Shown here: positions 8,795 through 23,402 of the stretch, one piece after another
Position numbering within the stretch: the first letter of the stretch is position 1
How the letters are laid out: each line of letters begins with the position of its first letter
Source of the DNA: Candidatus Doudnabacteria bacterium
GTDB taxonomy: Bacteria > Patescibacteriota > JAQUNI01
Assembly: GCA_041644975.1 (NCBI GenBank)
Contig: JBAZQX010000004.1
Span: forward strand, 9,189-73,188
Length of the DNA stretch: 64,000 bases
Direction: 5' to 3'
Program-made: the position numbers and the translations under genes
The notes under the pieces: generated by a model
What the model was told of the DNA's origin: nothing
The model's database searches: none
Seen by the model: only the letters and a program-made list of their open reading frames with translations

Positions 8795-8860
8795 AGTATT
8801 TTCTTCGTTGATTCAATTCTCCCGAATTGAACCACTAGTTTCTGCAGAATTATCAGAGAC

Positions 8861-9445: not shown

Positions 9446-9632
9446 AGGGGGAGTGTAATTGGTGCTGGGCATCGTGAACGATGTTATAACCATATTTCAA
9501 CGACAAACCGAGTATATTTACATACCAAATTTAAGTCTACAAGCTTAAAATCATTATATCAAATTTTACCCTACCCTGCTACTCACTATTGTTTTGCTCT
9601 TTGTTATTTTACCCCACCCCGCTACTCACTAT
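9446..9632. repeat. Repeat family A copy (longest copy, plus an extra partial TTTTACCCCACCCCGCTACTCACTAT unit)
   Basis: cagggggagtgtaattggtgctgggcatcgtgaacg…gagtatatttacataccaaatttaagtctacaagctta…ttttaccctaccctgctactcactat. Confidence 0.8.
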
Positions 9633-9757
9633 ATTACTAAGGGGGGTAGGGAGTGCCAGATTGAAAATCTAACGAATAAAAGAATTCTTATAGTCGCTCC
9701 GCACAGAAGTGTTTTTATCTTGAAATATATTTTAGTCCGATTTTTAAAATCTCCTCT

Positions 9758-9861
9758 AATGTTAGAACTATATTACAACGACAAAATGAGTATATTTACA
9801 TACCAGATTTAAGTCCACAAGCTTAGTTTATCAGATTTTACCCTACCCCGCTACTCACTAT
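9758..9861. repeat. Repeat family A copy
   Basis: gttagaactatattacaacgacaaaatgagtatatttacataccagatttaagtccacaagcttagtttatcagattttaccctaccccgctactcactat. Confidence 0.8.
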
Positions 9862-10244: not shown

Positions 10245-11705
10245 TTATTTGAACCAATTTACAATTTTTTTGAAGACCCTACCGATCTTTGCTGGAATGT
10301 CCGAAAAGGTCGATTTTATAAATGACAAAATTTTGTCATTTTTATTTATAGATACGCTACTTTCCTGACTACTGTTACTATTATCTTTATTTTCTTGTTC
10401 CGCACCCTGCTCATCCGTTGTCATTATCGTATTTTGCGAGCTTATGGCATTTTTTTCTTTCTCAACTACCACGGCTTTATCAGTGATTTCCAAACAACTA
10501 TTTCCAACTTCTTTAAAACCTTCATTACATTGCCATACATCTGCAGGGCTATCCGTTACTGGATGTGCGTTTGAGGGTATTTTAATACATTCAGTCTTAT
10601 TCAACGAAAGCGCATATCCCGCGCTACAAGTTTTTCTTTTTTCTGGGCTGTTTTGTTCTTGCGTTATCTTGGTTTGATTATTCGTTACTGGGGGGATCGC
10701 AAAGTCTAGAGGGGGAGAACTGTCTTCCTCTTCCTTTTTTAAAGTGTAATCAGAATCAATTTTTTCTAAACTTGTAATGTCGCAGGTTTCATCGTCATCT
10801 TGCAAAACAATCTTATCCCATCTATCAACATCAAAATCAATTCCTAAATTGACTACAATTCTATCATTTAAATATCTCTTAATAGAGGATGTATAGCATC
10901 CAGAATCATAAGTGATTAGGTAATATTGGTAATTATATTCACTTTTGATAATAGCCTGCCTCTCATCTGTGTTAAGTTCTTTTAAAATAAAATAAACATT
11001 ATTTTGTTTTTCAACACATTGATTATCATCATTTAAAGTATAATTACTATCACATTCACATTTTTTATTTAAAGAATTATAAGAAGAGTGAAGACCATAT
11101 TTAGTGAAGCAAGAGACGCATTCATTGCCACCGCCTATAGTTTTTTGCCTCAGAATATAGCCGTTTCGACACTCACAGACATCAGATAATGAATTGTATG
11201 TCGAATTATACCCAAGTTTATTGTGGCAATATTCGGTTGTATCTATGCATTTTGTTTTTCCAAAAAGGTCTTCACTAAAAATATACCCATAACGACACTT
11301 ACAAGTATCAGACAAAGAATCGTATGTCGAGCCGTATCCATATTTGTCTTTGCATTGCTGTTCTGTAGAAATACATTGTGTTCTTCCTACTGCATCTTTT
11401 CCCAAAGAATATCCATATCCGCACTCACAAGAATCATTTAAAGAGTTATATTTTGAGTTAAAGCCATATTTATCTTTACACATTTGGTCTGCCGATACAC
11501 AGCTAGCATTACCAAGAATATCTTTACCAAAAACATAACCACTCATACATTTACAGCTATCTGTTAAAGAATTATATGTCGCCCATATACCGTATTGAGA
11601 ACACTCACCGTAGCTTTGAGTGATTTTAATGTGAAATAAAAACAAACCTGACAAAATAAGCAAAACAGTTATGGCATAAAATTTATGATTGAATTTGAAA
11701 TCCAC
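10245..11705 (-). CDS. Secreted/surface Cys-rich tandem-repeat protein (about 7 copies of a roughly 44-aa C…YG.NS.YNSLSD.C.C..GY…G…C module) with Ser/Asn-rich C-terminal tail
   Basis: N-terminal TM/signal (FYAITVLLILSGLFLFHI). Repeats such as QCKDKYGYGSTYDSLSDTCKCRYGYIFSEDLFGKTKCIDTTEY. Confidence 0.6.
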   Translation of the reverse strand: MDFKFNHKFYAITVLLILSGLFLFHIKITQSYGECSQYGIWATYNSLTDSCKCMSGYVFGKDILGNASCVSADQMCKDKYGFNSKYNSLNDSCECGYGYSLGKDAVGRTQCISTEQQCKDKYGYGSTYDSLSDTCKCRYGYIFSEDLFGKTKCIDTTEYCHNKLGYNSTYNSLSDVCECRNGYILRQKTIGGGNECVSCFTKYGLHSSYNSLNKKCECDSNYTLNDDNQCVEKQNNVYFILKELNTDERQAIIKSEYNYQYYLITYDSGCYTSSIKRYLNDRIVVNLGIDFDVDRWDKIVLQDDDETCDITSLEKIDSDYTLKKEEEDSSPPLDFAIPPVTNNQTKITQEQNSPEKRKTCSAGYALSLNKTECIKIPSNAHPVTDSPADVWQCNEGFKEVGNSCLEITDKAVVVEKEKNAISSQNTIMTTDEQGAEQENKDNSNSSQESSVSINKNDKILSFIKSTFSDIPAKIGRVFKKIVNWFK

Positions 11706-11743
11706 AAATTATATTTTAGTATTAGAAATTATTTAATTTCTAG

Positions 11744-11995
11744 CTAATAACGCAACTTATAACTTTTATAGGGGCTTGTATATCCTTTTGCGCCTGTGTA
11801 TGGGTTGTAATTTCCTTTCGTTGACCAGTTATCTAATCTGCTTCTGTTGGGGCTAGTCCTATAATATGGCTGGACATATGTGCCAGTGCTTTTTTTGTAA
11901 TAACTCCTAACTCTGATTGTGCGTGCTTCGGCAGAAAAGACAAACAAGCCAAAAACGAAAGACAGAATAATTGATAAAACAATAAGTTTTTTCAT
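11744..11995 (-). CDS. Small secreted Tyr/Lys-rich protein with signal peptide
   Basis: MKKLIVLSIILSFVFGLFVFSAEA signal, then Y-rich 60 aa. Confidence 0.5.
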   Translation of the reverse strand: MKKLIVLSIILSFVFGLFVFSAEARTIRVRSYYKKSTGTYVQPYYRTSPNRSRLDNWSTKGNYNPYTGAKGYTSPYKSYKLRY

Positions 11996-12011
11996 AATTT
12001 TCCCTTTTTAA

Positions 12012-12362
12012 TTATTTTATAGGATATTTTTTAAAACATTCATCTTTGATTTGTTGATAGGCTTTCTTTAAATCATCTGCTCTATTTGAAGCCAATAAAC
12101 AACTACCATCTGTGCCGATTTCCCTATTATCTACTTTGCAATATTCATTCCATTGGTCGCGAGATGTAGTTTTAGCGTCTTCTAGACAAGCCTCAAGCAT
12201 TGATTTATTTAATTCTTTATCCACTTTTTCCTCAATTCGTATTAAGTCTTCTTTATTAGGAATATATATAACATAATGATAAAAAATAGCAAAACCTATC
12301 AATAATACGGCGGCTGCTAAAGTAGCTTTGAACCAATTAATCTTTTTTATTTTTTCTTTCAT
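12012..12362 (-). CDS. Small membrane-anchored protein; paralog of 8396-8794 (start taken at MKEKIKKINWF)
   Basis: Same TM + PN(K/Q) + coiled segment + Cys-containing C-terminal architecture. Confidence 0.5.
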   Translation of the reverse strand: MKEKIKKINWFKATLAAAVLLIGFAIFYHYVIYIPNKEDLIRIEEKVDKELNKSMLEACLEDAKTTSRDQWNEYCKVDNREIGTDGSCLLASNRADDLKKAYQQIKDECFKKYPIK

Positions 12363-12366
12363 AAAT

Positions 12367-13308
12367 TTAAGGCAAAGTTTCACACACAACGCCGTCTTTA
12401 TCTCGGTCTAGTTTGTGCACATCTCCCCTGCCTTGTGTTATGCAGTAATTATAACAGGCTTGAGCCTGTTTTTGTGTTGTGAAATCAGGGCAATTATAGG
12501 TATTACTACTGCAATTGCAAACTGTTTCCGTTGTAGTAGTGGTGGGTGCAGGCGTAGTTTGAATTGTGGGGCTAGTTTGGGCTTGGTTTGCTGAATTATC
12601 AGCTACGCAAGCATCATCAGCCCATAATCCTCGCTTATTCTTCTCTGCTTCTTTTTGAGCTTCTTTAAATTCTGATTGGTATTTATAGGGTGTGGAGTAA
12701 GTATATTCGTAAGCGTAGCCTTCGGCAATCATTAGTTTATTAAAGTTTGTCCCGTCTTCTAAAAAGACATATCTCAATAATCTACCATATTTGTCTCTTT
12801 CTCCTTGGGTTGGGTCGTTTTCTAAAATTACACTTTTGCCATTCAAAACTTCCTTGGCTTTATCGGAGGCTTCTTTACCAAAACATTCAACGGGTTTGCG
12901 AGGGTCAACGGTTTCGGGGGTGTTAATACCTATAAGCCTTAGGGTCTCTTTTGTCCCGTCCATATCAACTGTTACCGTATCCCCGTCAACAACTTTAATC
13001 ACCTTGTATAATTTCTGGGCTGATTGCCCCTCTGTTGCAGAATCTACACTTGGGGAGGTCTGTTGTGGTTCTGTCTGGCTGGCTTCATTTTGAGGCTCTT
13101 GGGTTGCGGATTCAACGGCTTGGGCTAGGGGCTGGTCTTGCTTTTCCTCCTGCGGCTCATTTATTGTCTGTTCTTGATTGGCGGTATCCTCAATCTTGGT
13201 TTCGCCAGTTTCTTTAGGATGTTGGCTAGTTTGAGTAGTCTCTGCACATCCTGCCAAAACAAAAAAACCTAGTAGGAGAATTGTCCATTTAACAAATTTG
13301 ATATTCAT
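12367..13308 (-). CDS. Thermonuclease (staphylococcal-nuclease/SNase fold) lipoprotein with C-terminal Excalibur Ca-binding domain
   Basis: Lipobox VLAGC. SNase motifs DGDTV, LRLIGINTPE, YGRLLRYV. C-terminal CPDFTTQKQAQACYNYC…LDRDKDGVVCE is the Excalibur signature. Thr/Gln-rich linkers. Confidence 0.8.
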   Translation of the reverse strand: MNIKFVKWTILLLGFFVLAGCAETTQTSQHPKETGETKIEDTANQEQTINEPQEEKQDQPLAQAVESATQEPQNEASQTEPQQTSPSVDSATEGQSAQKLYKVIKVVDGDTVTVDMDGTKETLRLIGINTPETVDPRKPVECFGKEASDKAKEVLNGKSVILENDPTQGERDKYGRLLRYVFLEDGTNFNKLMIAEGYAYEYTYSTPYKYQSEFKEAQKEAEKNKRGLWADDACVADNSANQAQTSPTIQTTPAPTTTTTETVCNCSSNTYNCPDFTTQKQAQACYNYCITQGRGDVHKLDRDKDGVVCETLP

Positions 13309-13373
13309 ATTCTTTTGGAATCTACATATTTTACCCCACCCCTCATTCACTTATATTTTTAGAAACAGGATTT

Positions 13374-15269
13374 TTATTTAACTTTTTCAGGAGTTTTAAA
13401 AATAAGCATTGTTGTTCCTATTTTTTTATAGAAATAATCTTTAATCCTATTGTATTTTTTGTTTTCGGGTAATTTATCATTAAAAACATTGTTTTGATAT
13501 TCAAAAATAGAAACGACGATATATGAATCAGTCGGAATCCATCCCCATTCAATATTGTAAGGCTCATATCCCTTCCCCAGATAATATTGCAATGGAACAT
13601 TAGTAAAAATATGAGCATAAATTTTATTTATATTATTATCCTTTACCCATTCTGCTAGTCTTTTTACATCCTGACCGCCCCAGTCATAATTTGAATCCGT
13701 TGCAATTTTATAACCATTATTAGTTCCTCCGGCAAAAGCGTTGTAATAACTCAAATAATATGGAAAAAAAACTATAGTTGATACTAAAATGACAATTGCC
13801 AAAAGAAAGAATAAAGATTTTGTTTTCAGGACGCGGAACAATTTTAAGTTCCAATGTAAATCAATCCCCCTCGCCGTTAATAGTATAACGGAAATAATTA
13901 CGGGCATAATATGTCTCAATCCAATTTGTAAGTTTGAAGATAGAGTAATTACCATATATAAATACGAGAATAACAAGAGCAAAAAAGATAATGGATTTTT
14001 CAAGAATGTTGATAATCTGGTTTTAATGTCTATTTTAGAAGATATAAATTTCCAAGTTGCTAAAGCTAGAGAAACGAAAATTAAGATAAGGGCACTAATG
14101 GACAATTTCGTTAAAAATAGAATCGGAAAATATAATGCTCCGGCTCCTTCTGAACCATAAACTCTACCCATAAAATATGTTTTTTGTAAGGCAGAGGACA
14201 TTCTTCCCCCAACCATTATTACGCCCAGTATATATTCTGCTATCCCTTTTGTTAGCGGATTGCTAATTACAAAACTTGATAATATTTCTACCCCTTGAGA
14301 TGGTAGTTCTTGCGGATATGTCTGCACTATTTGGGTTATCATTTCATCATTAGTCATATTGCGAACGTGAAGAGAATAAAAAATGGCAACAATAAAGAAT
14401 ACGGAAAGAATAAACGAAGAATAACGAATTAAAAATTTACCCACTTCTTTTCTGCTCTTTTGAACGAAAATTATAAAAATTAATCCCCCTAAAAACATTG
14501 CTGGAATAATAAGGACTGAAGAAAACTTTGCTAATAGCGCCAGCGAGGTGAACAACACCGAGAATAGAAACCAAGCTAAAATTTTACCTTTTTGTGCATA
14601 GTTTTTAAGATAAATTGCAAAACATACAATAGCTATTATTTGAAGTAGGGACGACATAAAGTCCATTATAACCAGAGAACCCATTGAAATAACAAATTGA
14701 GAAGAGACCATTAAAAAAATCCCTATCAATGAGGTTCTTTTGCTCCATATTTTTGTTAAGAAAATATAAAGCAGAAAAATAAAAAATCCATTAAACACAA
14801 TAACTGCTAATCTAGACCAAAAGGCAATATTGTCAGGATCATTATTTGGATTAAACAAAAAAAGTCTCCCCCAATCCCATTGGGCATTTCCAACCTCCAG
14901 CTTTTTCGGCATTATGTAGCTTTTAAAGGGGTAATCCCATCTTGTAAATTCTGAACCGAGATTAATTTTGTCTGAAATCTCCGGAAAAGTAGGTTTAATA
15001 AGCAACAGGGGTAAGCCGGCAATATCTTTAACAATAGGAGGATGTTCAGGATTTATGAAGTATCTACCCGTTTTTAGATAATAATATCCACTTGGAATAT
15101 GTGATAATTCATCGGATGTGATTGCGTCTCCTGTATATTTTAAATTTTTCCAATGAAATCCCTCAACGGAAAAAAGGGCAATTAAAATAAAGAAGGTTGT
15201 TAAAAGTATTGCTAATATGAAATTTGTTTTATTTTTAAGAAATGATTTTGGCTCTAATTTTTTAATCAT
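13374..15269 (-). CDS. GT-C membrane glycosyltransferase, family 39-like (PMT/ArnT-type); paralog of 43779-45530
   Basis: More than 10 TM helices. Conserved SHIPSGYYYLK…NPEHPPIVKDIAGLPLL and C-terminal SNYDWGGQDVKRLAEWV shared with the 43779 paralog. Confidence 0.6.
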   Translation of the reverse strand: MIKKLEPKSFLKNKTNFILAILLTTFFILIALFSVEGFHWKNLKYTGDAITSDELSHIPSGYYYLKTGRYFINPEHPPIVKDIAGLPLLLIKPTFPEISDKINLGSEFTRWDYPFKSYIMPKKLEVGNAQWDWGRLFLFNPNNDPDNIAFWSRLAVIVFNGFFIFLLYIFLTKIWSKRTSLIGIFLMVSSQFVISMGSLVIMDFMSSLLQIIAIVCFAIYLKNYAQKGKILAWFLFSVLFTSLALLAKFSSVLIIPAMFLGGLIFIIFVQKSRKEVGKFLIRYSSFILSVFFIVAIFYSLHVRNMTNDEMITQIVQTYPQELPSQGVEILSSFVISNPLTKGIAEYILGVIMVGGRMSSALQKTYFMGRVYGSEGAGALYFPILFLTKLSISALILIFVSLALATWKFISSKIDIKTRLSTFLKNPLSFLLLLFSYLYMVITLSSNLQIGLRHIMPVIISVILLTARGIDLHWNLKLFRVLKTKSLFFLLAIVILVSTIVFFPYYLSYYNAFAGGTNNGYKIATDSNYDWGGQDVKRLAEWVKDNNINKIYAHIFTNVPLQYYLGKGYEPYNIEWGWIPTDSYIVVSIFEYQNNVFNDKLPENKKYNRIKDYFYKKIGTTMLIFKTPEKVK

Positions 15270-15520
15270 AAAATTAATTTCAGTAGATAATTATTATTTT
15301 GTAAAATGCAATCTTTTCATATTTTTAAATTATTTTTCAAGCATCACTATTTAACCAGAAACACGAAGCTCCCCGCCAGCGATAGCCTTGCGGCTACCCA
15401 TATCCCTTTCGAGATATGACCGACTAAGGTGCTCTGAACGAGGAGCTTGATGCCTTAGTCGGTTTTATGCCATACCTCATAGCAAAACTATCAGGGTTAG
15501 GCAATTTAATTTTCAAAATA

Positions 15521-15745
15521 CTATGTTATGTGCTTTCTCTCTAACAACCTCTTAATATCATCTTTTCTATAACGCCTTATCTTTTTTTCACCAATCCTGA
15601 TTGCAACCAAAATACCTTTTTTGTCCCACTGGCGCAAGGTGTTAGGATGACATTTTAAAATATCACAAGTCTCTTTGAGGGTAAGAAGTTCTGGCATATC
15701 TTGTCTGTTTTTTACTACTTTTACCATTGATTTTTTACTTAACAT
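15521..15745 (-). CDS. Helix-turn-helix DNA-binding protein, excisionase/MerR-like (Xis-type)
   Basis: LLTLKETCDILKCHPNTLRQWDKKGILVAIRIGEKKIRRY is the HTH_17/Xis pattern. Confidence 0.65.
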   Translation of the reverse strand: MLSKKSMVKVVKNRQDMPELLTLKETCDILKCHPNTLRQWDKKGILVAIRIGEKKIRRYRKDDIKRLLERKHIT

Positions 15746-15815
15746 TTGATACCATTATCATACAGCAGAAAAAAATAATCTGCAAATATTAAAATGAAAA
15801 TTACTATAAATTACT

Positions 15816-17423
15816 ATGACACCAGAAGCAAAAATTTGGCTAATTTTAAAAAATCTAAATGATGCACTTACAATTGCCCCGAGCAAAAATTTGGCACTGT
15901 TGAACGCAAAAGACTTAGAGAAGTTGATGGCTAGAGAAGAGCACGAACAAATTTTGGAAAAGTTAGTTAAGGATTACAAAGTGGTGGATATTCAGAAAAA
16001 ACCAGATTATCAAAAAAGCTTTTTTTACAAATGCAAAATTACTGACAGCGACGAGTTTAATAAAATTTTAGAAGATGCTCATATCAAATATTTTGGTAGT
16101 TTAGGAATGCTGACAGGTGATAATTTTTTATCCGTAGTTGATGTAGCGACAGACATAATGAACGAGCTCCAAATGACCAAGGGGGATGAAACAGTGATAC
16201 CGCTTTTTCCATCCATTGTCAGATTTTCTAATCTTATGCCAGCAGACAGTATTAACTTAAGAGATAGATACTGTGATTTGAGATGGAAAGCAGTAATATA
16301 TTTAAGAGATAATGAATATATTAAAAATTTTAAGCTATTGAATCAAGCTTATGGAAACTTCCACAGATGGGATTTTGAAATCAAAATATCGCTGAATAGA
16401 ATTAAATTTTATAAATTTTACGAACAATTGATAACAACATATAATAGGCGGGTAAAATTTAGAAGTGAAGAGAAAAAAATAAAAAAGGAAAATGAAGCCC
16501 TAGACTATACAGACACAGCTTCAAGAAGGGCGTGGGAGAAAAAATGGGACACATTGCAAGTAATATGGACTATTTATGAAAGCAACAACAAACCAAATCA
16601 GCTACTTGTGCCTATTAAAAGACTAACTATTAAAGATAGAATCATTCTTGAAATTGAAGGTCTATTAAACGGCTTTGAAGATGATGGCTGTTTTGATTGG
16701 TGTAGAGGAACGGAGAATTATGAGATTAAAAACATAAACCACAACCTATTTGCAGAAACTTACAAAAAAACAGGGCTTATTTATGATAAATTCGCCAAGA
16801 TTTACCGAGAAAGGGTTAGCGATAAAAATATTGAAGATAAACAACCAACACAAAAAATTGAAATTGTTGGAGGTAAAATAGAAATTGAAGGATTGCAGGA
16901 TGGATTAAAAGCAATCGCCCAGACCAAAAAAGAAGATAAAAATCAATTTCCTTATAAATTACCAGCAGGAACGAAATGGGAAAATTTTACTATTAAGTTT
17001 GAGGATGATGAAAATGTTTTTATCCAAGTAAAACAATTTAAGTATAGTGCTGACTACAGAAAGATGGGAATGGTCGGACGAGGCAAAAATCCCAATCCAA
17101 GCGAAGCGTGGACATTTCTGAAAGTTTTATCTCAAGTTAATAATGAACTGACAATAAAAGACGCCGAAGCGAGAGATAAATATAAAAAACAAAAAGAATT
17201 ATTAGCAAAAGCACTTCAAAAATACTTCTTACTTGATTATGACCCCTTCTATCCTTATCACTCATCAACAGAAAAAAGCGGCAACTCTTATAAAATTAAA
17301 ATTACCCTAATACCGCCACCAGACAAAAAAGAAAAAGCTGATACTAATAAAGACGATAACGACGATTTAGGAATAAAAGAATACTTCAATAAACAAACTC
17401 CACAAATTTATGAAGACCAGTAG
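15816..17423 (+). CDS. Large hypothetical protein (535 aa ORFan) in the mobile element
   Basis: No recognisable catalytic motifs. Followed by a clear terminator. Confidence 0.5.
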   Translation: MTPEAKIWLILKNLNDALTIAPSKNLALLNAKDLEKLMAREEHEQILEKLVKDYKVVDIQKKPDYQKSFFYKCKITDSDEFNKILEDAHIKYFGSLGMLTGDNFLSVVDVATDIMNELQMTKGDETVIPLFPSIVRFSNLMPADSINLRDRYCDLRWKAVIYLRDNEYIKNFKLLNQAYGNFHRWDFEIKISLNRIKFYKFYEQLITTYNRRVKFRSEEKKIKKENEALDYTDTASRRAWEKKWDTLQVIWTIYESNNKPNQLLVPIKRLTIKDRIILEIEGLLNGFEDDGCFDWCRGTENYEIKNINHNLFAETYKKTGLIYDKFAKIYRERVSDKNIEDKQPTQKIEIVGGKIEIEGLQDGLKAIAQTKKEDKNQFPYKLPAGTKWENFTIKFEDDENVFIQVKQFKYSADYRKMGMVGRGKNPNPSEAWTFLKVLSQVNNELTIKDAEARDKYKKQKELLAKALQKYFLLDYDPFYPYHSSTEKSGNSYKIKITLIPPPDKKEKADTNKDDNDDLGIKEYFNKQTPQIYEDQ

Positions 17424-17460
17424 CGAAGTTAACCTTTAGCTTTTAATAAATCTCTTACAT

Positions 17461-17496
17461 AAAACTCCTCACAAAATGGGGAGTTTTTTGTTTTTC
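17461..17496 (+). terminator. Intrinsic terminator after the 535-aa ORF
   Basis: aactcc…ggagtt stem + TTTTTTGTTTTT. Confidence 0.6.
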
Positions 17497-17578
17497 TGCG
17501 ACAGAGCGTGAAATTCGCCATCTATAAGTAGAAGGTCGCAAAAAATAAAAAAATCACAATTACCCAAAATTAAATTAT

Positions 17579-17839
17579 ATGGTTAAAAAATCACAAAAAA
17601 GTCAGTCAGACGAGATGTTCGCCACTTACGATTTAGGATGTGCCGCCGCTTTGATAACGGCAGATTTTGAGTTGCTCACTTTGGATAAAGCTAATCCACG
17701 CAAAGTCCAGTTCATCTTTCGCCGAGAAGTCGGCATTGAAAAAGTCGTGGATGACTACTGGGCTGACAGATTAGAAGTTAAAGCACGGGCGTTCTTTGAT
17801 AATATCAAAATGTTAAAGAACCGCATTTACTCGGAATAA
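17579..17839 (+). CDS. Small hypothetical protein, possibly phage-associated (weak DUF5659-like pattern)
   Basis: FATYDLGCAAALITADFELLTLDKANPRKVQFIFRRE loosely resembles DUF5659-type small phage proteins as recalled, not verified. Confidence 0.35.
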   Translation: MVKKSQKSQSDEMFATYDLGCAAALITADFELLTLDKANPRKVQFIFRREVGIEKVVDDYWADRLEVKARAFFDNIKMLKNRIYSE

Positions 17840-17842
17840 ATT

Positions 17843-18040
17843 ATGATAACCGATGTGCAGATTGCAAAATTCCAGACACTTTACAAAAATCGCTTTGGCA
17901 AAACAATCAGCCGAGAGGAAGCGTTTGATATGGGAGTAAAACTCATCCGATTAGTTGAGTTGATTTACAAACCGATGAAAGAAAATGAATATCAGGAATT
18001 GCAGAAACGCCGCCAAAGCCAAAAAACTGACGACATTTAA
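17843..18040 (+). CDS. Small hypothetical protein
   Basis: 65 aa, 4 nt after the previous gene (operonic). Confidence 0.35.
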   Translation: MITDVQIAKFQTLYKNRFGKTISREEAFDMGVKLIRLVELIYKPMKENEYQELQKRRQSQKTDDI

Positions 18041-18060
18041 TAAAATTTAACATTAAAATT

Positions 18061-20295
18061 ATGCAAGAATTACAAACCATTACAATTAAAGAGTATCTGG
18101 CACGCAAAGGCGTTGCCTTTCGTGAGAGCGGCAAAGAGCTTATCACCCACTGCCTTTTTAACGGCTGTGATGAGAATAGCAAAACTAACGAAGCTCATCT
18201 TTATTTTGACGCAGAAACAGGGCAATTCAACTGCAAAAAGTGCGGCGAAAAAGGCAACCTCATAACCCTTGCTAAACATCTTGGCGATAGAATAAATGAT
18301 ATTGCCCTTAATCCAATAGCTCCCATTAAAAATTCACAAAAATCCACGAAATTTGACGCAGAGCTGGTTGAAACCTGTCATCAAGCACTTTCAGTCAATA
18401 TCCGCCAGTATTTGAACGCACGGGGCATCACAGACCCCATTATAGACACATACAAGCTTGGTTGGGGCAAATTCTACGGCAAATGGTGGATTACTATTCC
18501 TATTCAGGATATTGATGGAAATTTTGTTTTTCTCAAATTACGGCAAGACCCAGAAGATACAAATAATCCAGATAAATATAAATTTTATCCTGCTGGGAGT
18601 AGCGCAACTATCTATGGATGGAAAATGCTGAAAAATAACAAAGGCACCATTGTAATCTGCGAAGGTGAGTTTGACCAATTAGTGTTGTTACAAAATGCTA
18701 TTCCCGCTATCACTTCCACGGCTGGCGTTGGAACTTTCAAAAAAGAGTGGATTGAATACTTGAAAAAATTGGAAAAAATTTATATTTGCTTTGATAAAGA
18801 TGAAGCTGGTGAGAAAGGAGCAGAGCGGCTCATTAAACTTTTATCTGAACATTTATCTGATACTGCTATTTACAAAATTACGCTCCCAGAACGAATGGTT
18901 GACGGCAAAGATATAACCGATTATTTCCTAAGATACAACGGCAATGTGGATGAATTGATTTACAAATTAGCAAAAGAATATCCAGAGCGAATTGATACCT
19001 CGCAGTTCAAGCCGCTATCCTCGCAGGATTTGGTTGAAATACTTGGATTGACGATAAAGCAGGATGATGAAAATAAAATCGTAACCTTCCTTTGCGAGTT
19101 ATCGGCATATACGGAAAACGCTCAATTCAACATCAGCTTTAACGCACCATCATCTACGGGTAAAAGCTATATCCCCACCGAGATTGCTCGGTTATTCCCA
19201 GAAGAAGATGTAATGGAGCTTGCCTATTGCAGTCCTACGGCATTTTTTCACGATGTCGGCGAATGGAACAAAGATATGAAAGGATATGTCGTGGATTTGT
19301 CTCGCAAAATTTTGATTTTTCTTGACCAACCACATACTTTACTTCTTCAACATCTCCGTCCGTTGCTCTCGCACGATAAAAAGGAGATTTCGGTGAAAAT
19401 TACTGATAAGACGCAGAAGTTTGGATTGAAGACCAAAAATATCCTACTCAAAGGATACCCCGCAGTGATTTTCTGCACGGCAGGATTGTTGATTAACGAG
19501 CAGGAAGCAACACGATTTCTCCTGTTAAGCCCAGAGATTAACCAAGAGAAAATCAGGCAAGGGATTTTGGAGAGCATTAAAAAAGAAGCAGACGCCGAGA
19601 GCTATAAGGGCTGGCTGGATGAAAACCCCGAACGAAAGCTACTTAAAGAGCGGATACGGGCAATAAAACTGGAAGGTATCCGTGAAATAAAAATTGCAAG
19701 TTATCAAAAGGTTGTTGATAGATTTTTGAGCGAAAATAAGGTGCTCAAGCCCCGACACCAGCGAGACATTAAACGCCTTGTCTCAATTATAAAATCCTTT
19801 GCCTTAATCAATCTCTGGTGGCGGGAAAAAAACGGCACAACCATTACCGCCAATGAGGATGACATTGAACAGGCATTTAAGATTTGGGACGCTATCTGCA
19901 TAAGCCAAGAGCTTAGTCTGCCACCGTATATCTACAATCTCTACCAAGAAGTTATCTTGAAGGCGTGGAATGACAAAAATAGCAACAGAAGCGAGGCAAC
20001 GGGACTGCTCGGCTTATCACGGCAGGAACTACTGCAAAAGCACTTTGAGGTCTATGGGCGGATGTTGGACACAAACCAGCTACGCCAGCAGATTTTGCCA
20101 ATGCTGGAGATGGCGGGGCTTATCGTGCAAGAGGCAGACCAAAACGACAAACGAAAAATGTTGATTTCCCCTACCGCACTAACCACTAAATCTCCGAACC
20201 AAAACAATAGTGAGAACGGGGGTGGGGTGAGCACCAACGAGGAAAACAATAGTGAAACGCAGGGTGGGGTAACTCCAAACTTAGGAATTTTCTGA
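18061..20295 (+). CDS. DNA primase (CHC2 zinc finger + TOPRIM) fused to a C-terminal P-loop NTPase-like domain (phage/plasmid primase, P4-alpha-like architecture)
   Basis: CHC2 ribbon HCLFNGCDENSKTNEAHLYFDAETGQFNCKKCGEKG. TOPRIM GTIVICEGEFDQ … CFDKDEAGEKGAERL. Walker-A-like NAPSSTGKSY in the C-terminal half. Confidence 0.75.
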   Translation: MQELQTITIKEYLARKGVAFRESGKELITHCLFNGCDENSKTNEAHLYFDAETGQFNCKKCGEKGNLITLAKHLGDRINDIALNPIAPIKNSQKSTKFDAELVETCHQALSVNIRQYLNARGITDPIIDTYKLGWGKFYGKWWITIPIQDIDGNFVFLKLRQDPEDTNNPDKYKFYPAGSSATIYGWKMLKNNKGTIVICEGEFDQLVLLQNAIPAITSTAGVGTFKKEWIEYLKKLEKIYICFDKDEAGEKGAERLIKLLSEHLSDTAIYKITLPERMVDGKDITDYFLRYNGNVDELIYKLAKEYPERIDTSQFKPLSSQDLVEILGLTIKQDDENKIVTFLCELSAYTENAQFNISFNAPSSTGKSYIPTEIARLFPEEDVMELAYCSPTAFFHDVGEWNKDMKGYVVDLSRKILIFLDQPHTLLLQHLRPLLSHDKKEISVKITDKTQKFGLKTKNILLKGYPAVIFCTAGLLINEQEATRFLLLSPEINQEKIRQGILESIKKEADAESYKGWLDENPERKLLKERIRAIKLEGIREIKIASYQKVVDRFLSENKVLKPRHQRDIKRLVSIIKSFALINLWWREKNGTTITANEDDIEQAFKIWDAICISQELSLPPYIYNLYQEVILKAWNDKNSNRSEATGLLGLSRQELLQKHFEVYGRMLDTNQLRQQILPMLEMAGLIVQEADQNDKRKMLISPTALTTKSPNQNNSENGGGVSTNEENNSETQGGVTPNLGIF

Positions 20296-20336
20296 CACTA
20301 TAAAAAAGGGCGAAAAACATATAACACTTCTAACAT

Positions 20337-20801
20337 ATGACAAAAGTATCACAAAAACAATTAGAGGCAAACCAAAAAAACGCCAAGCTCGGCGGAGTAA
20401 AGACCGATGAGGGCAAGGCGGTAAGTAAGCTAAATGCTTTAAAACACGGACTATTAAGTAAAGAGGTATTACTTAATGAAGAAGACGAAAAATCCCTTAT
20501 TGAACTCGGAAAAAGATTGCGGACAGAGTTAAAACCAGATACGGAACTTGAGCTATTGTTAGTTGATAGGATTGTAGCGAATTTTTGGAGATTGCGAAGA
20601 GCAATGATAATAGAACAACACGATGTTATCTCTGACACTGGAGGGTTAATGTATGATTGTGATAAATTTTTCCGCTATGAGACACTGCTTGAAAGAGGAA
20701 TTTATAAAGCCCTTCACGAATTGCAACGGATACAATCTGCTCGTGCTGGAGAGAAACCGCCCGCCCCATTGGCAGTGGATATTGATGTTTCTACTGATTA
20801 A
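20337..20801 (+). CDS. Hypothetical protein (mobile-element cargo)
   Basis: 154 aa, no known motif. Confidence 0.4.
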   Translation: MTKVSQKQLEANQKNAKLGGVKTDEGKAVSKLNALKHGLLSKEVLLNEEDEKSLIELGKRLRTELKPDTELELLLVDRIVANFWRLRRAMIIEQHDVISDTGGLMYDCDKFFRYETLLERGIYKALHELQRIQSARAGEKPPAPLAVDIDVSTD

Positions 20802-20950
20802 TAAAATGGGTTTGTTTCGCAAAAATGGTGGCTTTTGGTGGCTTTTTTTGTAAGGTTAATTGGAACAACAATTTATTCTTTATTCAAGCGGAAAAATTGA
20901 TTTTAATTTCAAAAAATAAACCTATCAATCTCTAATGATTTCGGCGGATT

Positions 20951-21553
20951 TTGAGAAAAAATATTATGGCAAAGCAAGAAGCAGAATGGAGTAAAAGATT
21001 AAGTATTTTCTGGCTAAAGAAGCACGGCTATCTTGATGGCGGCTGGCAGTATGGGAGTATTAAGTGGACTTATGGGATGAGCGGCAATGAAAGCAGTATC
21101 GGCTTCAATGTTATGATTAACGGGGATGAGGGCGACAATATCAGATTACAATACACATACACGAGCCGAGGAACTGATGAAAAAGAAAGTATGGATTACA
21201 GGGTTGAACTTACTACAACTCCTTGTAACTATGGCGGCAAACGATACTGGTTTATCTGCCCACTAACCAAGGATGGAAAGTATTGTGGACGGCGGGTAGG
21301 GGTGCTTTTCAGTATTGGCAAGTGGTTCGGTTGCCGACACTGTGGAAATATTGCATACCAATCACAGTTTGAGGGCGGTAATATTCGCACAGGTTCAGTT
21401 TTTGAACCAGATGTTGAAAAAGCATACAACGAAGTGAAATTGCAATACTACAACGGCAAACCAACAAGAAAATATAAACGCTACCTACGATTAAGACAAA
21501 AGATGGATAATTCGTGGGCAAAAGCGGCTTTAAAATTTGGCATTAAGTTTTAA
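20951..21553 (+). CDS. Hypothetical protein with C4 zinc-ribbon (CNYGGKRYWFICP…CGRRVGVLFSIGKWFGCRHCGN)
   Basis: Two CxxC pairs. Otherwise unrecognised. Confidence 0.4.
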   Translation: MRKNIMAKQEAEWSKRLSIFWLKKHGYLDGGWQYGSIKWTYGMSGNESSIGFNVMINGDEGDNIRLQYTYTSRGTDEKESMDYRVELTTTPCNYGGKRYWFICPLTKDGKYCGRRVGVLFSIGKWFGCRHCGNIAYQSQFEGGNIRTGSVFEPDVEKAYNEVKLQYYNGKPTRKYKRYLRLRQKMDNSWAKAALKFGIKF

Positions 21554-21582
21554 GTATGGTATTATAGATGTGTTGACCCGCC

Positions 21583-21682
21583 GCAAAAGCAATTCACAAG
21601 GATTTTTATTTGTAATGCTGTCCCTAAAGGGGCGGTCTGCCAGCATTACTACTCCTTGTGAGCAAGTGGTTGGGTCAACCAG
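21583..21682. promoter_or_regulatory. Inverted-repeat structure upstream of the recombinase gene: gttgaccc…gggtcaac flanking gtaatgctg-22nt-cagcattac
   Basis: Perfect 9-bp inverted repeat inside an outer 8-bp inverted repeat. Candidate recombination/operator site. Confidence 0.4.
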
Positions 21683-21704
21683 ACCGTCCTTTTAAGTAAT
21701 AAAT

Positions 21705-23402
21705 ATGACAAAAATTACACAAATTACACAAAAAAACATAAAAAATAAATATTTTCTTTATGCCCGCAAGTCATCAGAAAGCGAAGATAGACAGGTGCAG
21801 TCCATTGATGACCAAGTAAATCGGCTTAAACAACTTGCCAAAGATTTAAGTTTGGATATTAAAAAAATCTATACCGAATCAAAAACAGCCAAGAAGCCAA
21901 ACAACCGCCCCCTATTTGATGAAATGATACAGAGAATTGAAAATGGCGAAGCGGATGGAATTTTATGCTGGCACTTAAACAGATTGACACGCAACCCAAT
22001 TGATAGCGGTAAATTAAGTTGGCTTTTGCAACAAGGAGTAATCAAATCCATTCAAACCATAGAACGACAATATCTACCCGATGACAATGTTCTACTATTT
22101 AATGTTGAGACTGGTCAGGCTAATCAGTATCTTTTGGATTTAAGCCGTGATACTAAACGGGGACTTCTCAAAAAACTGAATACGGGCTGGCAAAATGGCA
22201 TCGCCCCATTGGGTTATCTGAATGACAAAGAAAACAAAACTATTATCAAAGACCCAGAGCGTTTTAATCTCGTCCGCAAAATGTGGGATTTAATGCTCAC
22301 GGGCAATTATACGCCGCCAAAGATTTTAGATATTGCTAATAAGGAGTGGGGTTTTAGAACACGAAAATTCAAAAGGATTGGCGGCTGTCCTCTGTCCAGA
22401 AGCGGGATTTATAAAATTTTTACAAGTTTGTTCTATGCGGGGGTTATTGAAAATAAAGGGGTGCAATATGAGGGGAAACACGAGCCGATAATTACCCTTG
22501 AAGAATACGACCGAGTGCAAATGTTGCTTGGGAGAAAAGGCAAGCCAAGACCCAAAAAGCACAAATTTGCCTTTACTGGATTTATTCGGTGCGGGGAGTG
22601 CGGCTGTCTTTATACTGCTGAAACAAAACAAAAACTAATCAAAAGCACTGGCGAAATCAAAAAATATACTTATTATCATTGCACCAGAAAAAAAAGAGAT
22701 ATTAACTGCACCCAAAGGAAATTTATTAGAGAAAACAAATTAGAACTCCAAATTGAAAAAGAATTAGAAAAATACACTATTCTCCCAGAATTTTTACATT
22801 GGGCTTTAGAGGGTCTGAATAAAAAAAATGACACCGAAATTGAAGACCGAACAAAAATTTATGAAATGCAACATAAAACTTTAACTGAAACTCAAAAAGG
22901 ATTGGACGAGCTTACTAAAATGAGATACCGCCAGTTAATTGATGATGAAACTTTTGTCAAAGAGCGTAATGAATTACAAACCAAAATCACCCAGCTTAAA
23001 GAAAAATTAAGAGAAACCGAAAGCCGAGCCGAGCGATGGCTGGAGCTAACAGAGAAGACTTTTAATTTTGCAACATATGCTAGAAAAGCATTTTTGATAG
23101 GAGGGTTAGAACTAAAGAAAGAAATACTGATGACATTAGGGAAAAATGCGATAATAAAGGACAAAAAGCTCTATATTGAGCCGAATGAATGGCTACAACC
23201 AATCAAAAATGGCTATCCTGCCTTAGAAAAAGAATATCTAAGGTTAGAACCAGCCAAAATGCGCTTAAATAAAACAAAAACAGAGGCTTTAACCTCTGTT
23301 CGTGCACGGTGGCTGGGGAGGCAGGATTCGAACCTGCGAATGGCGGCTTCAAAGGCCGCTGCCTTACCACTTGGCTACTCCCCAAAATGGAATCAGGAAT
23401 AA
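21705..23402 (+). CDS. Large serine recombinase (resolvase/invertase catalytic domain + recombinase domain + zinc ribbon + coiled coil)
   Basis: YARKSS…DDQ catalytic region, GILCWHLNRLTR, CGECGCLYTAE…YYHCTRKK zinc ribbon. The last roughly 30 codons are antisense translation of tRNA-Gln. Confidence 0.85.
   Translation: MTKITQITQKNIKNKYFLYARKSSESEDRQVQSIDDQVNRLKQLAKDLSLDIKKIYTESKTAKKPNNRPLFDEMIQRIENGEADGILCWHLNRLTRNPIDSGKLSWLLQQGVIKSIQTIERQYLPDDNVLLFNVETGQANQYLLDLSRDTKRGLLKKLNTGWQNGIAPLGYLNDKENKTIIKDPERFNLVRKMWDLMLTGNYTPPKILDIANKEWGFRTRKFKRIGGCPLSRSGIYKIFTSLFYAGVIENKGVQYEGKHEPIITLEEYDRVQMLLGRKGKPRPKKHKFAFTGFIRCGECGCLYTAETKQKLIKSTGEIKKYTYYHCTRKKRDINCTQRKFIRENKLELQIEKELEKYTILPEFLHWALEGLNKKNDTEIEDRTKIYEMQHKTLTETQKGLDELTKMRYRQLIDDETFVKERNELQTKITQLKEKLRETESRAERWLELTEKTFNFATYARKAFLIGGLELKKEILMTLGKNAIIKDKKLYIEPNEWLQPIKNGYPALEKEYLRLEPAKMRLNKTKTEALTSVRARWLGRQDSNLRMAASKAAALPLGYSPKWNQE
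23310..23384 (-). tRNA. tRNA-Gln (anticodon UUG), CCA encoded
   Basis: rc = TGGGGAGTAGCCAAGTGGTAAGGCAGCGGCCTTTGAAGCCGCCATTCGCAGGTTCGAATCCTGCCTCCCCAGCCA. 7-bp acceptor with U1-A72, anticodon stem CGGCC/GGCCG, loop CUUUGAA, T-arm GCAGG-TTCGAAT-CCTGC. Confidence 0.85.

Follow-up and report, generated by a model that had tools for sequence, protein, structure and literature searches.

A probable member of an apparently undescribed family of tRNA-targeting, plasmid-like integrative elements in Candidatus Doudnabacteria

Positions 9464-23317 of the window (the 64,000-nucleotide stretch of contig JBAZQX010000004.1 analysed here) are very probably an integrated copy of a CPR element family whose members can exist as circular episomes. 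By analogy, the label that most likely fits best is that of an integrative, episomally replicating, cargo-carrying, tycheposon-like element. The family is large, apparently undescribed, self-replicating and plasmid-like, and inserts at the 3' ends of tRNA genes in CPR hosts. The original prediction of a mobile integrative element at tRNA-Gln with its own replication gene and large serine recombinase is supported; its 8-kb extent and its phage-satellite label are not.

Results

Attachment sites and extent

The element measures 13.85 kb, from the attL core to the attR core. Features at the two junctions are as follows.

9464..9469, no strand: attL core GCTGGG of the complete element; the left-end sequence of the family follows directly.
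23312..23317, no strand: attR core GCTGGG, the same as the attL core; nt 69-74 of tRNA-Gln (acceptor 3' strand, discriminator, C74).
23310..23384, minus strand: tRNA-Gln(UUG), the integration target (ARAGORN; Rfam tRNA, 71.4 bits).
23278..23301, minus strand: hairpin and T-run immediately 3' of the tRNA, within the integrase coding region; kept in relatives (AACAGAGGxTTTAACCTCTGTTCG).
9470..9491, plus strand: attP half-site P', CATCGTGAACGA, the inverted counterpart of TCGTGCACGGTG (23299-23311).
9483..9490, plus strand: T-loop mimic GTTATAAC after the P' inverted arm; counterpart of the tRNA T-loop ATTCGAAC at 23326-23333.
21705..23402, plus strand: large serine recombinase, integrated-form ORF of 565 aa (Pfam, PHROG).
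9465..9548, plus strand: detached, exon-like end of the integrase gene, read in the excised circle as LGIVNDVITIFQRQTEYIYIPNLSLQA and a stop, in frame after ...RARW.

Ten further elements (9.0-14.2 kb), and an eleventh besides, carry their own tRNA 3'-end repeat (3-9 bp) at both junctions. Loci L008-L013 hold one identical element with differing left flanks, and the flank changes exactly at this junction; an acceptor-stem compensatory change at nt 10 of the L013 tRNA places the crossover in the last ~9 nt of the tRNA. At tRNA-Gln(UUG), the 3' end points towards the element and the tRNA is wholly overlapped by the tail of the recombinase ORF, as had been predicted. The last two bases of its encoded CCA come from the element side; the native gene of L102, the closest host relative, encodes no CCA and reads ...CCCCAGC at its end, then TAG. 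The tRNA remains intact after integration, its CCA end and a terminator-like hairpin being given by the element; the hairpin is probably an element-supplied terminator for the tRNA.

The left edge had been predicted at 15290. Next to it lie the following features.

10245..15269, minus strand: cargo arm of five genes (Pfam), the stretch of most atypical composition; besides the two genes below it encodes a Cys-rich secreted protein of 486 aa and small proteins of 83 aa and 125 aa, all on the minus strand.
12367..13350, minus strand: secreted SNase-Excalibur nuclease (Pfam).
13374..15269, minus strand: PMT_2-like membrane glycosyltransferase, 631 aa (Pfam).
15381..15503, minus strand: LOOT RNA (Rfam RF03000), 88.9 bits against a gathering score of 46.4.
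15521..15745, minus strand: HTH_17 (MerR/excisionase-family) DNA-binding protein (PF12728, E=1.5e-11), highly conserved in relatives.

No att-type sequence is found at 15290; the family left end with GCTGGG occurs at 9464 and again at 7223. It is very improbable that the element is only an 8-kb core (~15290-23402) and that 9464-15269 are host genes or an older unrelated island, even though one relative of only 8.4 kb (L098) is nearly cargo-free and the PMT_2-like gene has a paralogue (30% identical) elsewhere in the window. A search of 15270-15380 for the core repeat and for the left-end/tail sequence of the family returned neither; in all relatives the cargo arm lies inside the left end, which is always found past a minus-strand arm starting right after the HTH gene and LOOT RNA; SNase homologues sit in the matching arm of three other elements (L035, L046, L073); and the cargo arm is the most foreign part by composition.

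The region had also been described as AT-richer than its flanks, which is borne out for 15290-23402 as a whole (GC 0.376 against 0.422 in the host, with atypical tetranucleotides), although the strongly AT-rich stretch is 15.3-17.5 kb only. Atypical composition spans ~5.5 kb to 23.3 kb, far beyond the predicted edge, and the element lies 3-8 sd off the host tetranucleotide profile.

The left side of the element is an array (units at 1365, 7223, 9464 and ~9758), so that the active unit may end on the left at 9464 or, less likely, at 7223.

7223..9463, no strand: unit B, a tandem, integrase-less unit of 2.2 kb with four minus-strand ORFs.
7223-7228: unit B core GCTGGG, with an intact copy of the tail segment at 7224-7304.
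9445-9463: right end of unit B, CAGGGGGAGTGTAATTGGT, unlike that of the element.
9568-9589, 9611-9632 and 9840-9861, plus strand: three copies of a 22-nt motif, ACCCYACCCYGCTACTCACTAT, in the left-end non-coding region.
~9758-9826, plus strand: second, core-less copy of the tail segment, within 9568..9861.
20207-20228 and 20249-20270: the same 22-nt motif, inverted, twice in the 3'-terminal part of the replication gene.

Unit B is a remnant or a non-autonomous relative, and 9568-9861 is a possible iteron/origin region. Decayed tRNA-like repeats and degenerate units adjoin the element.

L102, 91-95% identical to the window flank at the nucleotide level, has no element genes, and its homology to the window stops exactly at the tRNA 3' end (23312). 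The left flank of the window (7074-7177) matches sequence 35-130 nt past the L102 tRNA; since this common flank is itself repeated, L102 is not a clean empty site, and the predicted empty site was absent from the JGI metagenomes searched.

An integrase gene split by integration

The recombinase carries Resolvase, Recombinase and Zn_ribbon_recom domains, in line with its predicted class. The integrase proper ends ...SVRARWLG; the last ~28 residues of the integrated ORF, from 23318, are accidental read-through of the antisense tRNA, and the corresponding tails of relatives range from 4 to 35 aa. A conserved tail of ~28 codons (...IVDNVRTIxQxQxEYIYIPDL...) lies instead at the opposite end of the integrated element, and integration therefore swaps the C-terminus of the integrase. 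In the circle the gene runs across attP: the conserved tail is in frame at 10 of 11 reconstructed attP sites, and pairwise differences in the tail segment number 393, 244 and 679 for the three codon positions, the third being the most variable. Tail-bearing integrase proteins and a real circular contig back this arrangement. The full tail is present in 3 of the best 120 integrase proteins; 40 other listed ends are nearly all antisense-tRNA (...DSNL/DSNP...) or stop shortly past the junction. Integration strips off the conserved last ~28 codons and leaves them 13.8 kb away at attL, the tail of the integrated ORF being meaningless. AlphaFold modelled a tail-bearing integrase at low confidence (mean pLDDT 57.7).

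Loss of this C-terminus could also mean that the integrase is inactivated and the locus a fixed, immobile relic island that has retained its cargo. The conserved tail is indeed missing from the integrated protein, this integrase was found on one contig only, no excised or empty form of this copy, and no read- or contig-level sign of its excision, was found, and the adjacent degenerate units and decayed tRNA-like repeats show that remnants accumulate at the locus. We nevertheless regard a relic as unlikely: the core ORFs are all full length; the integrase is 79-86% identical to many relatives and free of frameshifts; no damage or loss of frame is seen in the tail segment, the two cores or the two arms; composition has not ameliorated towards the host; the element is missing in the closest relative; and circles are known for family members.

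The core is flanked by inverted TCGTNCACGNTG arms. In the P' arm, the T-loop mimic (GTTAGAAC) lies exactly 5 bp farther from the core than the real T-loop does (10/10 elements tested). In A118-family integrases the zinc-ribbon-domain motif is shifted between attP and attB (PMC3783163), and the +5 bp offset of the mimic matches the known attP/attB offset of large serine integrases.

Core genes and LOOT RNA

The conserved core of the family comprises the HTH gene, DUF5659, a 65-aa gene, the primase, genes of ~170 aa and ~200 aa, and the integrase. Those between the HTH gene and the integrase, with the variable slot, are as follows.

15816..17423, plus strand: 535-aa protein, variable in its N-terminal part and conserved over the C-terminal 175 aa (tblastn).
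17579..17839, plus strand: DUF5659 small gene (Pfam), in 64/97 loci.
17843..18040, plus strand: 65-aa protein gene, in 67/97 loci.
18061..20295, plus strand: replication protein, 744 aa, with Zn ribbon, DnaG-type TOPRIM primase, P-loop NTPase and probable winged helix.
20337..20801, plus strand: conserved 154-aa core gene (tblastn).
20951..21553, plus strand: 200-aa Cys4 zinc-ribbon-like protein (tblastn).

The HTH_17 match agrees with the earlier call of an excisionase-type gene, 'excisionase' here being a family name and not a role. Serine integrases do not usually rely on Xis-type HTH proteins as directionality factors, so that excision is only one possible role. The protein is probably the regulator of the element, divergent from the replication operon.

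LOOT RNA, absent from the original prediction, lies where core and cargo adjoin, 17 nt past the stop codon of the HTH gene, and recurs in matching place and strand at 20 of 86 related loci. In the alignment, 96.9% of cells are paired and 27 of 30 pairs show compensatory changes. The motif is reportedly one described by Weinberg and co-workers in 2017 from environmental sequence, with no assigned function; the window copy matches it over its full length, far over the gathering score and with strong covariation. Its position 3' of an HTH_17 gene, between the core and the cargo of CPR integrative elements, appears to be a new context in the text searched.

Three reading frames had been taken for orphans. 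The ORFs are real, and all three have relatives: nine other loci carry a version of the last 175 aa of the 535-aa protein (up to 86% identity), and the 154-aa and 200-aa genes have tblastn matches in 34/97 and 55/97 related loci. None of the three proteins matched a family in Pfam, PHROG, NCBIfam or PADLOC. The 154-aa and 200-aa proteins are candidate accessory or directionality factors. In relatives, the slot of the 535-aa gene is taken by a reverse transcriptase, a TPR protein or another large ORF. The two small genes foreseen between this slot and the primase were found (17579-17839, DUF5659; 17843-18040).

The predicted fusion of a zinc-finger-TOPRIM primase to a Walker-A domain was recovered (744 aa, C-terminal Walker-A). 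Pfam and PDB sequence searches found no homology of the P-loop domain to P4-alpha, D5/SF3 or DUF3987, and the combination of primase, NTPase and probable winged helix is only analogous to the predicted P4-alpha-like architecture. The NTPase may have an AAA+/MCM/RuvB-like fold, as weakly suggested by a moderate model (pLDDT 69) and weak matches (E about 3e-4).

Family and free circle

More than 2,500 primase homologues were found, the best 120 of them 64-81% identical over the full length and spread over many CPR classes; among species-representative genomes there were 201 matches, placing relatives in at least 201 species-level genomes, mostly Patescibacteria. The CPR host suspected for the window is confirmed, NCBI labelling identical proteins Candidatus Doudnabacteria. 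An antisense tRNA abuts the integrase at 54 of the 63 loci reaching past it, and eleven tRNA species are targeted (Asn, His, Gln, Trp, Asp, Ser, Gly, Glu, Lys, Arg, Phe). One relative (L101) is a closed circle of 15,051 bp (30-bp terminal overlap, no tRNA, an ORF closing across the ends), and an attP junction is visible at a contig end (L099). Elements of the family are 9-15 kb and can take the form of a circular episome. The variable slot of relatives carries defence-like genes: reverse transcriptase, methyltransferase with ResIII helicase, TPR and HSP70-like.

A phage satellite or PICI/P4-like island, dormant until induced by a helper, then replicating and being packaged in helper capsids, would share the integrase, the divergent HTH regulator and a primase-NTPase module of fitting size. 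The defence-like genes beside the regulator are reminiscent of the defence hotspots that P4-like satellites and PICIs carry. Satellites with large serine recombinases exist, such as the Vibrio cholerae PLEs (PMC9638900). This reading, too, seems to us rather unlikely. Profile libraries, which very divergent proteins could escape, gave no match to capsid, portal, terminase or capsid-redirecting families (Sid/Psu/Cpm-type; head-and-packaging PHROGs) in the window element or the complete circular relative; nothing in the conserved core is recognisably phage-related; a search of 2.9 million IMG/VR contigs yielded no relative of the primase; there is no known helper phage; and a plasmid-like circular relative exists. 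A literature search found no published description of such elements in CPR bacteria, so that the claim of an undescribed kind of integrated element is supported, without the satellite label.

Least probable of all is a new kind of temperate virus with structural genes among the unannotated ORFs. Conserved ORFs without annotated function exist (154 aa, 200 aa, 65 aa, DUF5659, the C-terminal domain of the 535-aa protein); these are all small, however, the large ORFs differ between relatives, unlike capsid genes, and the element is not in IMG/VR.

Discussion

The integrated plasmid-like element preferred here is closest by description to tycheposons of Prochlorococcus and other marine bacteria. 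Both carry cargo, use a site-specific integrase and insert on the 3' side of tRNA genes; many tycheposons have primase/helicase replication genes; serial insertions and remnants form islands beside the tRNA; and the hosts are streamlined bacteria without conjugation. Tycheposons mostly encode tyrosine recombinases (910/937) and are flanked by partial tRNA copies (bioRxiv 10.1101/2020.12.28.424599); attachment sites of that type are typically about 40 nt, against a 3-9 bp repeat in the CPR elements, which differ further in the large serine recombinase, the integrase gene spanning attP, the core genes, the host phylum and the LOOT RNA.

With the A118/LI, phiC31 and Bxb1 integrases (PMC3783163) the CPR integrase shares Resolvase, Recombinase and a Zn ribbon with long helical insertion, short att sites with inverted half-sites, and a motif 5 bp nearer the centre in attB than in attP. 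It differs in targeting tRNA 3' ends, the T-loop apparently being the attB motif, in having attP within its own coding sequence, and in being carried by a non-phage element. The 'suicidal' tyrosine integrases of SSV type, which archaeal viruses and plasmids encode and which are exclusive to archaea according to a review (PMC8371274), likewise have the recombination site inside the integrase gene, which is therefore broken on integration; they are split deep in the gene, whereas the loss in the bacterial serine recombinase is confined to the final ~28 codons. In mycobacteriophage BPs and relatives, attP lies in the 3' end of the repressor gene, and the C-terminus has been demonstrated to set protein stability (PMC4557955); there too the C-terminus of the encoded protein differs between the integrated and the free form, the affected gene being the repressor, next to a tyrosine integrase, and not the integrase itself, for which the consequence is inferred. 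P4 alpha and PICI Pri-Rep also combine primase, NTPase and a probable DNA-binding end in one protein, and these satellites are small integrative elements with a divergent regulator; the CPR NTPase part has no sequence match to D5/SF3, DUF3987 or P4-alpha models, and the CPR element lacks packaging and capsid-remodelling genes.

In the mechanism that we propose, the DnaG-type primase-NTPase-winged-helix protein would replicate the free circle, possibly at the repeated 22-nt motif, and the divergent HTH protein would control the replication/integration operon, with LOOT RNA in the 3' region of its gene acting as an element-encoded structured RNA. The integrase joins attP to the terminal bases of its target tRNA gene, in this case tRNA-Gln(UUG) with GCTGGG as core, and the swap of its C-terminus may tie its activity or stability to the integration state. 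Its zinc-ribbon domain may recognise, on the tRNA side, the T-loop, which is universally conserved; only the core would then have to match, which could account for the spread of the family over at least 11 tRNA species.

Genes and extent of the element

All ORFs of the original prediction lie where they had been placed. The features of the window on which the account depends are as follows, with their annotation.
15381-15503, minus strand: LOOT RNA, Rfam RF03000 at full length (model positions 1-121), 88.9 bits against a gathering threshold of 46.4.
15521-15745, minus strand: HTH gene, Pfam HTH_17.
17579-17839: DUF5659 gene, assigned by Pfam.
18061-20295: TOPRIM primase of 744 aa, Pfam Toprim_2/4/3, PHROG DNA primase (E=2.3e-30).
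21705-23402: large serine recombinase, Pfam Resolvase, Recombinase and Zn_ribbon_recom, PHROG integrase (E=3.6e-72, residues 4-503).
23310-23384, minus strand: tRNA-Gln(UUG), found by ARAGORN and Rfam; the recombinase ORF traverses the whole tRNA.

The contig is present in ENA as ERZ27249422 k141_195079. Proteins identical to the primase and to DnaX carry the NCBI label Candidatus Doudnabacteria, so the assumption of a CPR host stands.

The ends are given by comparison with related loci (L-numbers). One element occurs in several contexts at tRNA-Asn (L008-L013): its common sequence starts GCTCCG/AATTGTAGACAATGTTAGAATC... and finishes ...GTTCGTTCACGCTG/GCTCCG/GTGG..., the 3' end of tRNA-Asn, and a compensatory acceptor-stem difference in L013 confines the crossover to the final ~9 nt of the tRNA. 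A profile built from the left end of this element matches many loci, always upstream of the cargo arm; its matches in the window are at 9464, 7223, ~9748 and 1365. In 10 further elements of 9.0-14.2 kb, and later in an eleventh, the tRNA 3' terminus is repeated at both junctions over 3-9 bp. The junction repeat of the window is GCTGGG, at 9464-9469 and 23312-23317; the element is therefore 13.85 kb long and takes in the minus-strand genes at 10245-15269, replacing the 8-kb extent (15290-23402) predicted originally. A search at the far end for a long, directly repeated copy of the 3' half of the tRNA, such as tyrosine integrases leave, found none; the repeat is of 6 bp only.

The AT-richness ascribed to the region is seen at 15.3-17.5 kb (GC 0.31-0.33) but not at 17.5-23.3 kb (GC 0.37-0.43), and the low-GC stretch reaches leftward to ~5.5 kb, past the predicted left edge. 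Tetranucleotide distance from the host profile is 0.164 +/- 0.019 for 5-kb chunks of host sequence, 0.24 for the interval originally predicted, 0.32 for 9464-15380 and 0.33 for 5500-9463; by composition, the cargo arm is the most foreign part of the element. This cargo comprises a secreted nuclease, a glycosyltransferase-like membrane protein and small secreted proteins, and SNase homologues occur in the corresponding arm of three other elements; this and the composition are in keeping with the longer extent. A paralogue of the 631-aa PMT_2-like membrane protein of the element (30% identical) is encoded in the host part of the window at 43857-45527, plus strand; the cargo thus duplicates a host-type function.

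Tandem units and repeated motifs

The tandem unit and the copies of a 22-nt motif lie as follows.
7223-9463: tandem unit of 2.2 kb, with GCTGGG core and left end as in the element; integrase and primase remnants absent.
9568-9589, 9611-9632, 9840-9861 and 8293-8314, plus strand: 22-nt motif ACCCYACCCYGCTACTCACTAT, 3' of each copy of the integrase tail segment.
20207-20228 and 20249-20270, minus strand: the 22-nt motif inverted, inside the primase 3' end, encoding a repeated NSE..GGV peptide.

The layout of the 22-nt motif is the same in L008 and in the related locus L025; it may be an iteron/origin or a site of RNA-RNA pairing. Two integrase-less units, 1365-2283 and 7223-9469, both have a left-end tail segment with the 22-nt motif (degenerate in the first, 1445-1465), a 39-nt repeat in common (1532-1570 and 8328-8366) and a distinct right end, CAGGGGGAGTGTAATTGG[TG]GCT (2255-2283 and 9441-9469). 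The unit at 1365-2283 adjoins typA, not a tRNA. Both could be non-autonomous derivatives.

The predicted attP junction of the window element is CTCTGTTCGTGCACGGTG-GCTGGG-CATCGTGAACGATGTTATAACC. The predicted attB is GGGAGTGTAATTGGT-GCTGGG-GAGGCAGGATTCGAACC once the 13.85-kb unit has gone, and CACCCGTTTGTCTGG-GCTGGG-GAGGCAGGATTCGAACC once the whole 16.1-kb array has gone.

The tRNA-Gln locus in relatives

The closest relative of the host, GCA_028717685.1 (L102), has a DnaX that is 89% identical and is 91-95% identical at the nucleotide level on the dnaX side. Its homology stops exactly at window position 23312, and its next 9.5 kb contain no gene of the element. To this extent L102 offers an empty tRNA-Gln locus, but the shared left flank is itself repeated: the stretch of the window that adjoins the array on its left (7074-7177) has two matches in L102, one 35-130 nt past the tRNA and one 4 kb further on, and is a repeated, decayed tRNA-3'-like unit. 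The empty site of L102 is for this reason supportive rather than clean. The exact predicted empty site had no match in JGI metagenomes, and the exact integrase protein was found on one contig only; an exact look-up of DnaX, in the form called here, gave no record.

Several side observations concern the same locus. Decayed tRNA-3'-like units (GGTTCGAAG...CCCAG...) lie downstream of tRNA-Gln in the window (7074-7177) and in L102 (12069-12163 and 16107-16206); they are scars that show this tRNA to have been a hotspot of integration for a long time, and elements that duplicate more of the tRNA have probably used it too. In L103, from a related species, a GIY-YIG gene directly follows dnaX (11340-11715) between two copies of the tRNA-Gln 5' part (TGGGGAGTAGCCAAGTGGTAAG), which looks like an insertion of homing-endonuclease type at the same tRNA; the GIY-YIG homologue of the window is at 5712-5963, 17 kb away. 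A bAvd/23S_rRNA_IVP-family gene is found between dnaX and tRNA-Gln in L102 (11569-11952) and is absent from the window.

Split integrase gene and attachment sites

The recombinase has an N-terminal resolvase catalytic domain with a serine nucleophile (PF00239, E=1.6e-16, residues 17-154; motif YARKSSESEDRQ), followed by Recombinase (PF07508, E=1.1e-6) and zinc-ribbon (PF13408, E=1.7e-11) domains; a coiled-coil insertion is suggested by long helices at residues 355-462 in a low-confidence model of a homologue. With the short inverted att sites, this set of domains makes it, by sequence, a large serine recombinase.

When the right end is joined to the left end in silico, the integrase ORF is extended in frame by 25-34 codons with a conserved motif in 10 of 11 cases, to end in ...RARW LGIVNDVITIFQRQTEYIYIPNLSLQA-stop in the window, where the full-length protein has 537 aa plus the tail, and ...RSRW LRIVDNVRIIIQQQNEYIYIPDLREYADV-stop in L008. 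Among 13 elements, the 21-codon block of this tail shows 393 pairwise differences at first, 244 at second and 679 at third codon positions, a pattern indicating protein-coding constraint. An outward promoter function for the 67-nt repeat 'D2' was ruled out; its conserved frame and codon-position pattern are those of the integrase tail.

The joined form is also found directly. A JGI contig (L099) ends in a real attP junction, ...CGTACACGTTGGCTGG/CAATCGTGAACG. A Logan contig (L101) of 15,051 bp has a 30-bp terminal overlap and no tRNA; its integrase of 561 aa bears the tail, and an ORF for an HSP70-like protein closes across the contig ends. L101 is a circle, of 15,021 bp.

Among the closest 120 integrase proteins in the database, three carry the full tail, and nearly all of 40 others whose termini were inspected finish in antisense-tRNA residues (...DSNL/DSNP...) or just past the junction. 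The tails of integrated forms are 4-35 aa long and not conserved. The overlap of the recombinase end with the antisense strand of the tRNA, as predicted, is thus real, but it is a by-product of attR and not conserved integrase sequence: the tail is lost at attR and the integrated ends are variable. As in self-splitting ('suicidal') integrases, attP lies within the integrase ORF; the enzyme is a serine recombinase of a bacterial host, not an archaeal tyrosine recombinase of SSV type.

The reconstructed attP consists of inverted arms, TCGTNCACGNTG - core - CANCGTGNACGA, with a core of 3-9 bp. In its P' (left) arm, GTTAGAAC(C) is exactly 5 bp more distant from the core than the tRNA T-loop (A/C)TTCGAACC in each of the 10 elements tested. 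The sites thus resemble those of large serine recombinases: they are short, with half-sites in inverted orientation, a small core common to attP and attB, and a ZD motif that is 5 bp closer to the centre in attB. From these positions we infer that the T-loop would act as the attB motif, which would explain the spread of the family over tRNA species. On integration, the right end supplies the CA of CCA, which the native gene of L102 does not encode, and a conserved hairpin with a T-run behind the tRNA. The AlphaFold model of a tail-bearing integrase is of too low confidence to show the fold of the tail.

Gene order and distribution of the family

Homologues of the primase number more than 2,500; the 120 best matches are 64-81% identical over their full length and are assigned to many CPR classes. 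When one genome per GTDB species was scanned with a profile, 201 relatives were found, and 80 loci were retrieved. In contigs around primase homologues the order is conserved: minus-strand cargo, LOOT (in some members), HTH (minus), a variable large plus-strand ORF, DUF5659, a 65-aa protein, primase, proteins of ~170 and ~200 aa, serine recombinase and antisense tRNA. The 'ORFans' of the original prediction are core genes of the family; the slot of the variable ORF is taken in the window by the 535-aa protein, whose C-terminal 175 aa are common to 9 other loci, and in relatives by a reverse transcriptase, a TPR protein or others.

An antisense tRNA abuts the integrase in 54 of 63 loci that extend beyond it; targets are the tRNAs for Asn, His, Gln, Trp, Asp, Ser, Gly, Glu, Lys, Arg and Phe. 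In two of the exceptions a group I intron occupies the position expected for the tRNA (RF00028; L012:14280-14617, 92.9 bits; L019:15433-15734, 51.1 bits), which suggests that intron-containing tRNA genes are targets in some CPR hosts.

Cargo in relatives includes pairs of methyltransferase and ResIII helicase, reverse transcriptase, HSP70-like/AAA sets and secreted proteins. An HSP70-like ATPase of ~840 aa is found in the cargo arms of the circle L101 and of the related locus L049 (3823-6315), in L101 together with GrpE-like, AAA and Yip1-like genes, as a possible module for conflict or defence. Several unannotated PHROGs match the 359-aa AAA protein.

LOOT RNA

The LOOT RNA, which the original prediction did not list, starts 17 nt past the stop of the HTH gene in the window. 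A model from six copies detects it in 20 of 86 related loci, where every copy is minus-strand and 1.4-3.8 kb upstream of the primase; in ~10 loci it begins 17-29 nt after the HTH stop, with variable cargo genes downstream. In the 20 copies of related elements, pairing is kept in 96.9% of cells, and both sides have changed in 27 of 30 pairs, a level reached in none of 500 shuffles; the wobble pairs are consistent with transcription from the HTH strand.

In JGI metagenomes, 75 loci were found by the LOOT 5' motif. Of the 68 that extend far enough, 24 have the family HTH immediately upstream of LOOT. Of the 17 with at least 4.5 kb of flank, 13 contain a core-gene homologue (HTH, DUF5659, 65 aa, primase, 154 aa, 200 aa, integrase) and 5 the primase itself. 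Other LOOT loci carry different replication and integration modules; in one example these are, by N-terminal sequence only, probably a primase-polymerase and a tyrosine integrase. Specificity of LOOT for this primase family is thereby ruled out; the RNA belongs to a broader range of integrative elements. Metagenome loci with the motif and without the primase family include L141, L112, L164 and L105; L141 has two LOOT copies 1 kb apart (5379-5415 and 6400-6436), and some LOOT loci pair with a RepA-like ATPase and a serine integrase, then an antisense tRNA.

Classification of the element

The original prediction was of a phage satellite or PICI-like island. An integrase, a divergent regulator and an own replication initiator on an island of ~10-15 kb are common to PICIs and to this element, and equally to integrative plasmids. 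The genes for virion hijacking (terS, capsid-size redirection, Sid/Psu/Cpm, own MCP) are absent by Pfam and PHROG from the window element and from L101, and no protein of either matched a virion or packaging family. Scans of IMG/VR gave no relatives of the primase (single protein and profile) and only distant integrases (single-protein scan with the integrase). The satellite assignment is not supported on present evidence.

Of the P4-alpha-like architecture proposed for the primase, the TOPRIM/DnaG-like domain is upheld (PF13155, E=1.4e-13; against PDB 2au3, E=3.9e-9 by sequence and 2.7e-11 by fold), but not an SF3 helicase domain: for the D5/VirE-type helicase there was no Pfam match even at E<=10 and no PDB sequence match for residues 305-744. 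The N-terminal part is a primase of DnaG/T7-gp4 type; the C-terminal 440 aa give weak fold matches to MCM/RuvB AAA+ proteins, with a moderate model. This C-terminal module matches 1,498 cluster representatives at E<=1e-3, and many matches start near the N-terminus of proteins of 400-560 aa, which suggests that it has stand-alone forms, some of which may be fragments. For the NTPase domain and for ORFs of unknown function, searches of Pfam at E<=10, PDB sequences, PADLOC and NCBIfam returned nothing informative, the sole exception being SNase against a candidate defence family.

The best label is that of an integrative, episomally replicating cargo element. Functionally, the nearest known kind are the cargo-carrying tycheposons, which likewise combine a site-specific integrase at the 3' side of a tRNA with replication genes and cargo; they have flanking partial-tRNA repeats and their own clade of tyrosine integrases, whereas here the repeat is of 3-9 bp only and the enzyme is a serine recombinase. 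No published description of the family was found in the literature searched.

Proposed mechanism and significance

A joint reading of a serine 'suicidal' integrase with tail sensor, T-loop retargeting and a regulatory LOOT is put forward tentatively, as a possibility that we would not yet call probable. With attP in the integrase 3' end, integration strips the conserved 28-aa tail; through the tail swap the enzyme would itself sense whether the element is integrated, and its stability or directionality would be set accordingly, the full-length enzyme favouring integration and the tail-less one excision or silence. Mimicry of the T-loop would let the family retarget to any tRNA through a few core bases. 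Should this reading hold, the family would be the main plasmid-like vehicle of CPR gene exchange, defence cargo included.

Serine integrases are genome-engineering tools, and this integrase may serve as one; T-loop recognition with few exchangeable core bases would be a testable rule for retargeting such enzymes. The LOOT orphan motif gains a host clade and a genomic setting in which to test its function. Much of bacterial diversity belongs to the CPR/Patescibacteria, but little is known of their mobile elements. Their plasmids are 'rarely studied' (2025 survey, PMC12023590), and a family with defined ends, a free circle and variable cargo in at least 200 species-level genomes offers a handle on horizontal gene transfer in the CPR.
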